Below, piece by piece: positions 4,935 to 8,906 of a DNA stretch of 64,000 bases. The translations under genes and the position numbers were made by a program. Under the pieces are notes generated by a model, which was not told the origin of the DNA, made no database searches, and saw nothing but the letters and a program-made list of their open reading frames with translations. This DNA comes from Escherichia phage dhaeg, in sequence record MN850609.1. One strand, given 5' to 3'. Positions within the stretch are counted from its first letter, which is position 1. Each line of letters opens with the position of its first letter.

Positions 4935-5228
4935 ATGGGTATTTTCCGTACAGTGGCTTGTATCCTTATGATTGGATGTTTAAGCCCGACATCTTCACTA
5001 GCAAACAAATCCGACCCTAAATTGATGGATGCCTTTGCTAGTAGTGCGATGCCAGTTTATGCGCAAATGAGTAAACCTAGTGTAAAGGCTTCCGAAGACT
5101 ACTGGGCTTATGTAACTGCTTCTTGGAAAATTTCAAATTGCAATACAATAGAGTCTTGCTCGATTGAAGGTCGGGCTATCGGAGAACGATACGCTAAACT
5201 AATGAAGGTAGATGATGAAATTCAATGA
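4935..5228 (+). CDS. rI: rI-like lysis inhibition regulator (periplasmic, signal-anchor)
   Basis: 97 aa; N-terminal TM/signal; C-terminal similarity recalled to T4 rI; synteny next to tk. Confidence 0.5.
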   Translation: MGIFRTVACILMIGCLSPTSSLANKSDPKLMDAFASSAMPVYAQMSKPSVKASEDYWAYVTASWKISNCNTIESCSIEGRAIGERYAKLMKVDDEIQ

Positions 5229-5598
5229 TTTCGTACTTAGTCGAGGGACTGAAGTAGATTCTTATATTGGCTGGCTGTTGGTTTCTTTAGCCTATTTTAA
5301 GTCAGCCCATTTGGAAACCAAAAGCTATGCAAGACACAAAGCATATGACTTCTATTATACAGAAGTTCAAGGACCACTAGACCAGTTCAGTGAACAGTAT
5401 TTAGGATTTAGTGGCAAAGAATATAAAGCATCACTACCGTCTGCTTCAGAACTGCCTAAAGACCCCATAGATTTTCTTGATGAACTTATTAAAGCGTCTG
5501 ATAAAATCTACAAAAATCTTCCTAAGGCCATCCAATCGACTTTGGACGACATCACTGGTGTCTTTTACCAGACTAAGTATTTGTTAACGTTAGAATAA
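5212..5598 (+). CDS. hypothetical protein
   Basis: 128-aa ORF followed by terminator. Confidence 0.45.
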   Translation: MMKFNDFVLSRGTEVDSYIGWLLVSLAYFKSAHLETKSYARHKAYDFYYTEVQGPLDQFSEQYLGFSGKEYKASLPSASELPKDPIDFLDELIKASDKIYKNLPKAIQSTLDDITGVFYQTKYLLTLE

Positions 5599-5603
5599 TC
5601 AAA

Positions 5604-5629
5604 GGTCTCACTTCGGTGGGACCTTTTTT
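5604..5629 (+). terminator. rho-independent terminator
   Basis: GGTCTCAC-TTCG-GTGGGACC hairpin plus T6. Confidence 0.75.
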
Positions 5630-5638
5630 CGTTTTAGT

Positions 5639-5667
5639 GTTTACATCCTCTAGGAACGTGATACTAT
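5639..5667 (+). promoter_or_regulatory. early promoter (GTTTAC / TACTAT)
   Basis: GTTTAC, 17-bp spacer, TACTAT, AGACCTATCAACT block. Confidence 0.65.
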
Positions 5668-5695
5668 AGACCTATCAACTAATGAGGAGAATAAA

Positions 5696-5926
5696 ATGAA
5701 AACCATCACCAACCTGAAAGTTATCGATATCGCTAAAGCTTCTAAAGCACTTAAAGTTAAAGCTGAAGATTTTGAAAACGCTACCTTTGCTATTATCGAA
5801 CAAAACGGTAAAGTAACTGGTTTAGAAGTTTATGAAGCTACTAAGTTCCAATCACAGCCTAAAATGGTTATTGGTACTAAATCTGTAGCTATCGAAAAAG
5901 CTTTGGCATTATTCGAAAAAATTTAA
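5696..5926 (+). CDS. hypothetical protein
   Basis: 76 aa; GAGGAG RBS. Confidence 0.5.
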   Translation: MKTITNLKVIDIAKASKALKVKAEDFENATFAIIEQNGKVTGLEVYEATKFQSQPKMVIGTKSVAIEKALALFEKI

Positions 5927-5939
5927 TGAGGAAAATATT

Positions 5940-6122
5940 ATGTTAACTACCGAACAGATTGAGAAAATTATCAAACTCGCCCAGCACATTGAAAACGCAT
6001 CCAATGACCTGGCTGTTGAATATTGTGAAGGTTATTCGTATTCCGGAATAGAGCAGTGTAAACGAGATTTGGCTAACTCTAAAGCAGCCTTGGTTGAGTA
6101 TCTTAATGGGTTGAAAGCATAG
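5940..6122 (+). CDS. hypothetical protein
   Basis: 60 aa; GAGGAAAA RBS. Confidence 0.45.
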   Translation: MLTTEQIEKIIKLAQHIENASNDLAVEYCEGYSYSGIEQCKRDLANSKAALVEYLNGLKA

Positions 6123-6379
6123 TGGCCGTTGGATTTGCTAAGGACGGGGCCGAACAGCTCGAAATGGAAGCGGTCGTACAGGCCGCTATAGTACACGCCC
6201 GTAAGCAAGTAGCAGTTGAACGTGAATCGGCTAAATATTGTTTTGATTGTGATGAAGAGATTCCTGAAGCACGACGTCAAGCTATTAAGGGTGTGATATA
6301 CTGTGTAGGTTGTCAGTCAATGCATGATGAAATTTTTAAACGTGAGCCACGTAACTGTTGGCATAGGAGCATGAGATGA
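6122..6379 (+). CDS. TraR/DksA-family C4 zinc-finger protein (likely RNA polymerase secondary-channel binder)
   Basis: CFDCDEEIPEARRQAIKGVIYCVGCQ matches TraR/DksA zinc-finger signature; GTG start overlapping upstream stop. Confidence 0.6.
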   Translation: MAVGFAKDGAEQLEMEAVVQAAIVHARKQVAVERESAKYCFDCDEEIPEARRQAIKGVIYCVGCQSMHDEIFKREPRNCWHRSMR

Positions 6380-6470
6380 TTTACTATCTTGAACCTTGGG
6401 CTTGGCTTACAATGCTTATTGGTCCAGTTTTAATAGGTTTATTCTTTTCACGGTTAGCGAGGAAACTGTA

Positions 6471-6680
6471 ATGTTATACGACCCGAGTGGTAATTCTGAA
6501 GATGGTGTTATTGTTTTGAAACCTGAAACATTAGCAGGTTCAGGTGATGATATGACTGTTGAAGTGGTAGAGTGGAATCTTATTAAAGGCGGAATTGTCC
6601 TGGAACAAGATGACGAGGTCATTTATCTGGATGCAAGCCAAGTCGAAGAGCTTTATAGTATTTTAAAACATAACCGGTGA
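6471..6680 (+). CDS. hypothetical protein
   Basis: internal ATG with GAGGAA RBS in ORF 6396-6680. Confidence 0.4.
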   Translation: MLYDPSGNSEDGVIVLKPETLAGSGDDMTVEVVEWNLIKGGIVLEQDDEVIYLDASQVEELYSILKHNR

Positions 6681-6683
6681 TTT

Positions 6684-6866
6684 ATGAAAACCAAAGAAAA
6701 GCACTTAAAGCTTGAAGAGCTTATCGAGGCCTATGCTGGTACAGTTGCCAGATTCGAAACAGCATTTTGTCACCATTACTCGGTTGATGATTGTACTAGG
6801 CTTTCTAAAGAAGAAGATAAAGCCCTTAAAGAATTGCTAAATTTTATTAAACAAAATGTGAAATGA
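6684..6866 (+). CDS. hypothetical protein
   Basis: 60-aa ORF. Confidence 0.4.
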   Translation: MKTKEKHLKLEELIEAYAGTVARFETAFCHHYSVDDCTRLSKEEDKALKELLNFIKQNVK

Positions 6867-6876
6867 GGAACGGAAA

Positions 6877-7437
6877 ATGATTATTGAAACATCTGGGCTG
6901 TTTGGTGACCTGACTGCTGAAGTAGTTGATAATGCAATTGTGCTTTCACAAGAAGACGATAAAATCGTACTGACTATCCAAGATATCAAGCCGCTTTATG
7001 ATTTAAAGGTTTTGGACAAACACGAATATCTTAATGGCAGATTTAGAGGTGTATTTGATATTAATGATGGTTTATGGGCCCAGATTTATAACCATGACAA
7101 AGGGTTTAATTTGGAAACAGACGGAGAATGTCTGAGCATTAGCGATTCTAGTAATTTCTTTAAATGTATTTTTAAACTGTTCCAGGAAGAATGCAAGCCG
7201 GAAGTTGAATGGAAAGTCCCTGGTCAAGATGCCGTAATTCGTTCTAGTGAAACATTTGAAGGTGATGAAGAAGAAATGGATTATGATACCGAACTAACCG
7301 TGTATCAACACCAGGGCCGTGATTTGCTATCCTTGGTCCAAAGACACGACGGTGAAAATGAAGTTGTATTTACGAAGGACGAGCTAAAAGTTTTAGTATC
7401 TTATCTGAACTCTGTTATCCCAACTATGAACTCTTAA
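6877..7437 (+). CDS. hypothetical acidic protein
   Basis: 186-aa ORF with GAGGAACGGAAA RBS. Confidence 0.5.
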   Translation: MIIETSGLFGDLTAEVVDNAIVLSQEDDKIVLTIQDIKPLYDLKVLDKHEYLNGRFRGVFDINDGLWAQIYNHDKGFNLETDGECLSISDSSNFFKCIFKLFQEECKPEVEWKVPGQDAVIRSSETFEGDEEEMDYDTELTVYQHQGRDLLSLVQRHDGENEVVFTKDELKVLVSYLNSVIPTMNS

Positions 7438-7446
7438 GGAAATATT

Positions 7447-7899
7447 ATGATTATCAATGAAAACTCTTGGCATGTTAAATTACATGACCGCTTTTATGCC
7501 AGTTATTCGCGTCCGCGATCATTATGCGCATACTTCTGGAAAATGGTTTGGGTGTGCTTTATGTGTTCTGTGCTTGCAGGTAGTACTATTTTCGGCTTAA
7601 CTGTTGCAGGTGCCGGTATATTGGAGCAGTTCTTTGTATTGAGTACTCCTGTTGGTTTAAGTTTAGGTTTTATTTTAGGACTGATTATAATAGCCCTTAT
7701 TCTAGCGGTAGCTTTTGGTTTGGTGTATGGTCTAATGAATTTATGGGCCCGGTACGATTTACGTAAAGAAGAAAAAGAATGGGAACGCATTAAAGCTAAA
7801 CGTGAAGGAAAGGAAATTAAAGAAAATGTTTTCATTCAATATATTAAAGCTCGTAAATCTAAGATGTGTCCGGTAATCCATTTTGAGGCTAAGAAATGA
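7447..7899 (+). CDS. integral membrane protein
   Basis: 150 aa, two or three hydrophobic helices, basic C-terminus. Confidence 0.5.
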   Translation: MIINENSWHVKLHDRFYASYSRPRSLCAYFWKMVWVCFMCSVLAGSTIFGLTVAGAGILEQFFVLSTPVGLSLGFILGLIIIALILAVAFGLVYGLMNLWARYDLRKEEKEWERIKAKREGKEIKENVFIQYIKARKSKMCPVIHFEAKK

Positions 7900-8906
7900 G
7901 AACAGTTATGAAAGGCTACTTCGGTAGCCACCTTTATGGAACAAGTACTCCGGAATCTGATGTCGATTTTAAAGAAATCTTTGTTCCACATCCGCGTGAT
8001 ATTCTGTTAGGTACGGCAATGAACCATACCAACCTGAACACGAATAACACTGCTTCCAAAAACACTAAAGATGATGTTGACCATGAGCTTTACAGTCTGA
8101 AATATTTCTTTAAACTAGCTGCTGAAGGCGAAACCGTTGCTCTGGATATGCTCCACACTCCGCCTGAAATGGTGGTTAAATCTGATTTACCTGATGTATG
8201 GAAATTTATCCAAGATAACCGTTCGCGTTTCTATACAACCAACATGAAAGCCTATTTAGGGTACGTCCGTAAGCAAGCTTCTAAATATGGTGTTAAGGGT
8301 TCTCGACTGGCTGCTTTACGTGGTGTACTGGCAATTGTTAACCAGATTCCTGAACAGTGGGTTGATTATCAAGAAGATGGTTCTACTAAGCAACGACGTA
8401 CTAAGGTAGAAGATATTAAGCACCGGCTCCCTGAAAATGAGTTCTGTGAATGGGTATTTCATAACCACGAGAAAACAGGTCCTCAAACGTTCTATACCGT
8501 CCTCGGTCGTAAATACCAAACTACTTTGTCATTAATCGAGCTCAAGCAATCTCTGAATAAACTTGATGCCGAATATGGTGAACGTGCTCGTAAGGCCGAA
8601 GCCAATGAAGGTATTGACTGGAAAGCTCTGAGCCACGCTTATCGTGCTGGATATCAGTTGAAGGAAATCTATCAAACAGGCGATTTGGTTTATCCACTTA
8701 AAAATGCTTCTATTATTAAAGCAATAAAAGCAGGTGATATGCCTTTTAAAGTGGTCCAAGGGCTGCTAGAAAACATTGTTGATGAAGTTGAAGTCCTGGC
8801 TGTACAAGCTCATAAGAACGGTATACCTGAGAAGGTGGACATGAAGTTCTGGGACAAGTTCGTCGAAGAGGTGTATCTTGACAACCACAACTCTTATTAC
8901 CGCTAA
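7896..8906 (+). CDS. nucleotidyltransferase-fold protein (Pol-beta superfamily motif GS...DVD)
   Basis: 336 aa; GSHLYGTSTPESDVDF motif; ATGA overlap upstream. Confidence 0.5.
   Translation: MRTVMKGYFGSHLYGTSTPESDVDFKEIFVPHPRDILLGTAMNHTNLNTNNTASKNTKDDVDHELYSLKYFFKLAAEGETVALDMLHTPPEMVVKSDLPDVWKFIQDNRSRFYTTNMKAYLGYVRKQASKYGVKGSRLAALRGVLAIVNQIPEQWVDYQEDGSTKQRRTKVEDIKHRLPENEFCEWVFHNHEKTGPQTFYTVLGRKYQTTLSLIELKQSLNKLDAEYGERARKAEANEGIDWKALSHAYRAGYQLKEIYQTGDLVYPLKNASIIKAIKAGDMPFKVVQGLLENIVDEVEVLAVQAHKNGIPEKVDMKFWDKFVEEVYLDNHNSYYR

Follow-up and report, generated by a model that had tools for sequence, protein, structure and literature searches.

Among the described relatives of the protein analysed here, TraR of the F-type plasmid passes its N-terminal helix through RNA polymerase's (RNAP's) secondary channel, with Ser2 lying 4.3 Å from the catalytic Mg2+, and places its zinc domain on the β' rim helices and its C-terminal helix on βlobe-Si1 (PMC6970531). 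It needs no ppGpp to inhibit the promoters of rRNA and r-protein genes or to activate others (PMC9239242). All five TraR homologues tested, which come from temperate phages or a likely prophage, act as TraR does, binding RNAP and inhibiting rrnB P1, and one of the phage proteins studied, λ Orf73, raises burst size (PMC9239242). A further relative, E. coli YbiI, is encoded by a chromosomal gene that adjoins fiu-ybiX and is a member of the σS regulon. At high level, YbiI rescues the auxotrophy of a ΔdksA strain (PMC2613031, data not shown there). We found no experiments in the literature on the DksA-like proteins of T4-like or jumbo phages.

Family membership of the zinc-finger protein

The window considered here is a 64,000-nucleotide stretch of phage DNA, of which positions 5000-8000 are 100% identical to Escherichia phage dhabil (MN850621), a T4-like coliphage of the Straboviridae, Tevenvirinae, genus Dhakavirus; the plus strand of the window corresponds to the minus strand of that record. 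An open reading frame with exact bounds 6122-6379 (+), stop codon counted, starts with GTG and encodes 85 aa. The 26-residue zinc-finger peptide CFDCDEEIPEARRQAIKGVIYCVGCQ makes up residues 40-65 (nt 6239-6316) and holds a C4 zinc finger, C40-x2-C43-N17-C61-x2-C64 (6239-6313, +), whose four cysteines are invariant in 83 homologues. The preliminary description had read a TraR/DksA-like C4 zinc-finger protein in this frame and had staked that reading on a match to the DksA/TraR profile. It is borne out: the protein scores 37.7 bits (E 2e-09) against Pfam PF01258 (zf-dskA_traR), above the curated gathering cut-off of 24.9 bits, and matches PHROG 54 ('DksA-like zinc-finger protein') over residues 12-77 with an E value of 2.8e-20, while the sequence matches to solved structures of YbiI and TraR and the predicted fold described below concur. 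Judged by these scores, chance can hardly account for the zinc-finger match.

Public sources make this family assignment too, among them the GenBank record, PHROGs and the annotations of hundreds of phages, and how the family works has been well described. The dhabil record lists the gene as dhabil_159 (QHR72502.1), 'C-4 type zinc finger protein'; in JS10 the orthologue goes under 'hypothetical protein PA4870', and the names 'DksA-like zinc-finger protein', 'TraR/DksA C4-type zinc finger protein' and 'YbiI' occur in further phage records. The finding is a correct recognition of a publicly annotated family and opens no new question by itself. Homologues are present in 762 phage records by tblastn, 166 of them at 60% identity or more, the latter mostly in T4-like and jumbo phages of Enterobacteriaceae.

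Within the family, the NCBIfam models give a graded picture. The protein reaches 76 bits with the YbiI model (NF008243 / PRK11019; cut-off 96), 52.7 bits with the TraR subfamily TIGR02419 (C4_traR_proteo; cut-off 59.7), 30.6 bits with the TraR equivalog NF010268 / PRK13715 (cut-off 108) and 12.4 bits with DksA_like NF033459 (cut-off 105). By sequence, the similarities to YbiI and to the TraR subfamily are real, though below the curated cut-offs. A sequence search of the PDB returned YbiI (2KGO, E 5e-09) at the top and then TraR (5W1S/6N57, E about 2e-04). On these comparisons, and by the alignment described below, the protein belongs to the YbiI-like branch and not to TraR proper.

Operon, distribution and selection

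The zinc-finger gene lies in the locus between rI/rI.-1 and nrdC.11, and its position there is the same in Dhakavirus, Gelderlandvirus, Karamvirus and Marfavirus. The upstream rI/rI.-1 unit is closed by an intrinsic-terminator-like hairpin of 11 bp followed by a T-run (5601-5636, +); six T4-like genera have a hairpin with a T-run at this place. Directly behind it is a promoter-like site (5640-5667, +) composed of (G)TTTACA, 16 nt and TACTAT with a TG upstream, and then a Shine-Dalgarno sequence, GAGGAGAA, and the first cistron. In an alignment of this intergenic region from dhabil, T4, STML-198, CC31, EK29 and PhAPEC2, GTTTAC and GTGnTAnnAT are invariant, and the module of terminator, GTTTAC-N17-TAnTAT (GTG upstream) and GAGGAGAA is kept in the six genera while its flanks diverge. 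The module occupies 5601-5695 (+) of the window and 6721-6822 (-) of the compared T4 locus, in the rI.-1/mobD.5 intergenic region, and marks the start of the variable mobD-region operon. The form of the promoter-like site corresponds to the established T4 early-promoter consensus.

The first cistron (5696-5926, +) is a 76-aa ORF belonging to phrog_18567, and the second (5940-6122, +) a 60-aa mobD.3-like ORF with a DUF7438 domain, whose stop overlaps the start of the zinc-finger gene (TAGTG). The zinc-finger gene is the third cistron, translationally coupled upstream through this TAGTG and downstream through an ATGA. The preliminary description had called the phage copy early, and the location of the gene behind a conserved terminator and early-type promoter module agrees with this; the timing itself is a matter of reasonable inference, the early class being deduced from the fit of the promoter form to the T4 early consensus.

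Several features of the surrounding DNA are recorded here in their own right. The ATGA overlap belongs to a 31-aa hydrophobic ORF, MIYYLEPWAWLTMLIGPVLIGLFFSRLARKL (6376-6471, +), which shares the transcription unit of the zinc-finger gene, matches phrog_12165 (E 2e-23), is identical to PhAPEC2 gp094 at 28 of 31 positions and is without annotation in the dhabil record; STML-198 has an unrelated, likewise unannotated, small hydrophobic ORF at the same overlap. Two 60-aa DUF7438 paralogues (5940-6122 and 6684-6866, both +) are 33% identical (E 1e-04) and flank a block containing the zinc-finger gene and the 'MLYD' gene (6471-6680 in the window); the presence of two such mobD.3-like paralogues suggests a duplicated module in the region. 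The rI.-1 homologue (5212-5598, +) carries the RefSeq/PHROG name 'starvation-inducible transcriptional regulator' in relatives, a name that seems unsupported, Pfam giving DUF5856 only. The nrdC.11 homologue (7896-8906, +) is called 'thioredoxin' in the dhabil record, which is probably wrong because its Pfam match is to RlaP, the RNA-repair-pathway DNA polymerase β family nucleotidyltransferase (Pfam). Elsewhere, the window encodes the polymerase modifiers customary in T4-type phages, namely the ADP-ribosylases ModA/ModB, regulators of the MotA/MotB type, Srd, Mrh, RpbA and gp55.

The stretch from rI.-1 to nrdC.11 varies between T4-like phages. A tblastn search of the syntenic 10 kb of T4 gave no homologue of the zinc-finger gene even at E 10, and the Mosigvirus PhAPEC2 (NC_024794, 2459-2602) has a truncated fusion remnant of it. 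Because T4 lacks a copy in the syntenic region and Mosigvirus has the remnant only, the gene is accessory and its function dispensable. In the remnant carried by Mosigvirus phages, the zinc-finger protein survives as its C-terminal 28 residues, joined to some 25 residues from the N-terminus of the downstream 'MLYD' gene. The first CxxC is missing, and PhAPEC2 has a TGA stop in place of the Cys79 codon; remnants of this kind appear to make up PHROG 25948 (54 aa). At the corresponding position, the Karamvirus CC31 (NC_014662, 2501-2770) has a YbiI-like gene of another type, which is 49% identical, ends in the bacterial-type tail YNRRGSKDSQLR and begins differently, with MASGWGPSDDGF, so that at least two lineages of the gene occur in T4-like phages at a single locus. 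In the jumbo phage Turkey5, the zinc-finger gene is found in an unrelated context.

We compared the gene codon by codon among five orthologues, from dhabil, JS10, Klebsiella phage AmPh_EK29, Salmonella phage STML-198 and Turkey5. Synonymous differences are many and non-synonymous ones few across the gene, and Nei-Gojobori dN/dS, leaving out pairs with saturated dS, ranges from 0.03 to 0.17, being 0.03 against JS10 and 0.08-0.17 against the more distant phages. The gene is under purifying selection and is a functional gene. Each orthologue pair has 3-7 synonymous and no non-synonymous differences in codons 2-12, which fixes the translation start at codon 1. This codon is ATG in relatives, where it overlaps the upstream stop (TAATG), and GTG in dhabil (TAGTG); the single A-to-G change preserves upstream stop and valid start alike. 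Codons 72-85 show 1-5 synonymous and no non-synonymous differences among the four T4-like orthologues, and in pairs with Turkey5 three non-synonymous steps, namely E75Q and a two-step AGC/TCT change at Ser83. Since the substitutions are patterned on the plus frame, we dismissed as spurious an ORF of 82 aa that lies on the other strand (6032-6280).

These data bear on the idea that the gene is a decaying or neutral passenger of a hyperplastic region, without function in dhabil. The variability of the rI.-1 to nrdC.11 region, the lack of the gene in T4, the premature stop in the Mosigvirus remnant and the replacement of ATG by GTG in dhabil would fit such a history. The frame is intact, however, and the low dN/dS values given above, together with a start-codon change that leaves both the upstream stop and a valid start, speak against it, as does phage CLB_P2, where the protein is 100% identical and the 3-kb region 98.1% identical at the DNA level. 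We consider a functionless passenger highly improbable.

Predicted fold and putative polymerase contacts

An AlphaFold2 model built from the 83-sequence alignment (mean pLDDT 75, rising to 86-90 over residues 41-70, which span the zinc finger) predicts an N-terminal helix at residues 5-29, a zinc ribbon, a C-terminal helix at residues 62-71 and a low-confidence tail. Superposed on RNAP-bound TraR (6n57_M), the model gives a TM score of 0.76 normalised to TraR and an rmsd of 2.2 Å over 68 columns. A Foldseek search of the PDB returned E values of 0.001 or less for YbiI and RNAP-bound TraR only, DksA being a weak match (E 0.18). The predicted architecture is thus that of the short TraR-like regulators, in which one N-terminal helix precedes a globular zinc domain and a C-terminal helix follows it, here in 85 aa as against about 73 aa.

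In a MAFFT alignment of the 85-aa protein with TraR of the F-type plasmid, λ Orf73, PSP3 gp34 and E. coli YbiI, I47-P48-E49-A50-R51-R52 (6260-6277, +) corresponds to TraR I44-P45-E46-A47-R48-R49. The equivalents of TraR R48/R49 are present as R51/R52 within IPEARR, and I47, P48, R51 and R52 are invariant, with the zinc cysteines, in the 83 homologues. In TraR, R48 binds the β' rim helices, and E46 and R49 contact β'Si3 (PMC9239242; PMC6970531).

The N-terminal tip carries the motif F5-A-K-D8-G-A10 (6134-6151, +), defined by the MAFFT alignment, by its conservation and by the purely synonymous changes in codons 2-12. Each of its columns is 92-97% conserved in the phage clade, the bacterial clade has W/F-A-K-D-G-A, and MA-x-G-(F/W)-AKDGA is near-invariant in both. 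In the MAFFT alignment D8 and A10 are placed on TraR D6 and A8, and F5 sits at the position of TraR D3, after a two-residue N-terminal extension. Of the complete DxxDxA motif (TraR D3, D6, A8), the protein therefore has D8-x-A10, with Phe in place of the first Asp (Trp in YbiI). The spacing between D8 and the first cysteine is 32 residues, compared with 29-31 in TraR, λ Orf73 and PSP3 gp34. An hhalign comparison of the YbiI-like alignment with TraR, λ Orf73 and PSP3 gp34 aligned residues 19-73 and no N-terminal segment; since it stops short of the tip, we infer the register of D8/A10 from MAFFT and from the spacing. The tip sequence D-G-A-E-Q-L-E resembles D-L-A-Q-Q-R-E of PSP3 gp34, and can be likened to the DksA tip, which from D74 on reads D-R-A76-A-Q-E-E. 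The counterparts of D8 and A10 in DksA, D74 and A76, are functionally critical (PMC4010833).

In view of the fold, of the conservation of the rim contacts and of the Asp/Ala pair that is kept, we rate as likely a TraR-like binding of the protein in the secondary channel of host RNAP. According to this proposal, the protein would be made early in infection by a T4-like coliphage and its single long N-terminal helix would enter the secondary channel of the host polymerase, so that the tip, Asp8-Gly-Ala10, is directed towards the active site. The domain formed by the zinc ribbon, with its IPEARR motif, would be placed on the β' rim helices and β'Si3 and the C-terminal helix would touch the β lobe, with a reprogramming of host transcription as the outcome. 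By analogy with its characterised homologues, the protein would bind polymerase, shift transcription in the same direction as they do and inhibit rRNA promoters, the last being an example offered in the preliminary description.

The missing first aspartate raises the question of whether the protein would inhibit at all. Inhibition by λ Orf73 is strongly reduced when D3 is changed to N, and the activity of VHML Orf8 has been suggested to be lowered by an N-terminal extension (PMC9239242). The protein might then be a plug of the secondary channel, binding RNAP as TraR does without inhibiting it, but excluding DksA/ppGpp (site 2) and GreA/GreB, so that transcription in the infected cell would become insensitive to the stringent response. 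Such a role would accord with the retention of the rim-binding residues alongside the replacement of the first Asp of DxxDxA by Phe, with the requirement of the DksA tip aspartates for function and not for binding, and with the competition of every tested homologue with DksA for one site (PMC9239242). It is nonetheless unlikely in our view, as the Asp/Ala pair aligned with the critical D74/A76 is kept and nearly invariant, and as X. bovienii Gp34, which is without D3, still binds RNAP and inhibits rrnB P1, albeit with an IC50 of 415 nM compared with about 50 nM for TraR (PMC9239242). The rescue of ΔdksA by YbiI at high level likewise points to a DksA-like rather than an anti-DksA activity.

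The C-terminal tail of the phage clade, R77-N-C-W-H-R-S-M-R85 (6350-6376, +), has no counterpart in TraR, extending nine residues beyond its end. R77-H81 are invariant in 38/38 phage-clade sequences and the whole tail, residues 77-85, is 87-100% conserved per column in the same set, whereas 36 bacterial YbiI-like sequences have (GY)NRRGSKDSQLR in place of RNCWHRSMR. The tail of Turkey5 has the same residues in other codons (Ser83 AGC to TCT, Arg82 AGG to AGA), and this synonymous variation and the clade alignment show that the tail is selected at the protein level. We considered the possibility that its conservation merely reflects a Shine-Dalgarno sequence of the overlapping downstream ORF and rejected it, since Turkey5 has different codons, a TAA stop and no overlapping gene. 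The tail co-varies with positions elsewhere in the protein (H25, 6194-6196; Y60, 6299-6301; F72, 6335-6337; C79-W80-H81, 6356-6364). All 38 phage-clade proteins have His25 together with Cys-Trp-His at 79-81, and most also have Tyr60 and Phe72, while bacterial YbiI-like proteins mostly have Arg25, Leu60, Gln72 and Ser-Lys-Asp at 79-81. This co-variation may mean that the tail packs against the N-terminal helix, or that there is a second metal site.

The tail is also among the points in favour of a YbiI-type function other than RNAP regulation, in which the zinc ribbon and the basic/aromatic tail would bind nucleic acid, a metal-related partner or a phage protein. YbiI is without an established function, and its gene lies beside fiu-ybiX and in the σS regulon; the invariant RNCWHRSMR and the H25, Y60 and F72 that co-vary with it are without a TraR counterpart; some members of the C4 zinc-finger family do not act like DksA (PMC9239242); and in phage VP882 TraR works as a complex with the partner protein QisA (bioRxiv 10.64898/2026.07.27.740977). 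The predicted fold, on the other hand, matches RNAP-bound TraR over its whole length, conservation in the protein is highest at the residues expected to contact the β' rim and Si3, and the extreme N-terminus is invariant, as would be expected of a tip reaching the active site. Following the idea of a QisA-like partner, we looked for a conserved neighbour and found none, the immediate neighbours differing among dhabil, EK29, STML-198, Turkey5 and CC31; that no flanking gene is kept across lineages speaks against an obligate partner encoded next to it. PADLOC returned no match and gave no sign of a role in a defence system. We regard a function away from RNAP as rather unlikely.

We found no prior description of the Gly-Phe extension of the tip, nor of the CWH tail and the residues that co-vary with it, although both remain details of a protein of known kind. 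By the alignment, the T4-like/jumbo clade has a tip that exceeds TraR's by two residues, with an invariant Gly-Phe at the place of TraR Asp3. The clade could represent a distinct variant of the TraR fold, in which the longer Gly-Phe tip is combined with a tail that serves as a second metal site or as an aromatic module contacting a phage-modified polymerase (ADP-ribosylated or bound by AsiA/RpbA) or a phage partner, as QisA for VP882 TraR. If true, this would amount to a mechanism of host-versus-phage promoter discrimination unlike that of TraR or DksA, but we think it quite unlikely.

Were TraR-like binding in the secondary channel to hold, lytic T4-like and jumbo phages would add a ppGpp-independent secondary-channel regulator to their many RNAP modifiers, a type of takeover by phage-encoded members that has so far been shown only for temperate λ, P2, VHML and VP882 and for one protein of a likely prophage. 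The YbiI branch, too, would then have a first clue to its function.

Comparison with YbiI, TraR and DksA

E. coli YbiI (b0803; 2KGO) is the best match both in the PDB and among the NCBIfam models, with about 35% identity and a length of 88 aa as against 85 aa. The phage protein shares with it the N-terminus MA-x-G-(F/W)-A-x-D-x-A, the spacing of the zinc finger, the IP(E/Q)ARR motif and the presence of a conserved tail beyond the end of TraR. It differs from YbiI in its score, 76 bits against an equivalog cut-off of 96, in its tail, which is RNCWHRSMR instead of GYNRRGSKDSQLR, and in having H25, Y60 and F72 instead of R25, L60 and Q72. Both the score and the tail (G)YNRRGSKDSQLR that define the YbiI equivalog are thus absent from the phage protein, and the phage copy is in an early-type operon while ybiI is a σS-dependent chromosomal gene.

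With TraR (5W1S, 6N57), λ Orf73, P2 Orf82 and VP882 Orf61, the protein would have in common the N-terminal helix, the C4 zinc ribbon and the C-terminal helix seen in the model. It also has the equivalents of R48/R49, E46, P45 and G54, an acidic residue five positions after the last cysteine and the Asp-x-Ala of the tip, and, like them, it is encoded on a mobile element whose gammaproteobacterial host has an RNAP with the insertions βSi1 and β'Si3. The protein is about 29-30% identical to both TraR and λ Orf73, and 41% identical to PSP3 gp34. In contrast to this group, it scores below the TIGR02419/PRK13715 cut-offs, has Phe for the first tip Asp, a two-residue N-terminal extension and nine extra C-terminal residues. 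Its host element is a strictly lytic T4-like phage with Alt/Mod-type ADP-ribosylases, whereas the phage homologues tested come from temperate phages or a likely prophage. With DksA (1TJL, 7KHI) the protein shares the Pfam zinc-finger domain, the D-x-A-x-Q-x-E of the tip and the C-terminal helix, but it has about half the length of DksA (~150 aa) and a single helix instead of a coiled coil, and it is without the N-terminal region and the residues of ppGpp site 2.
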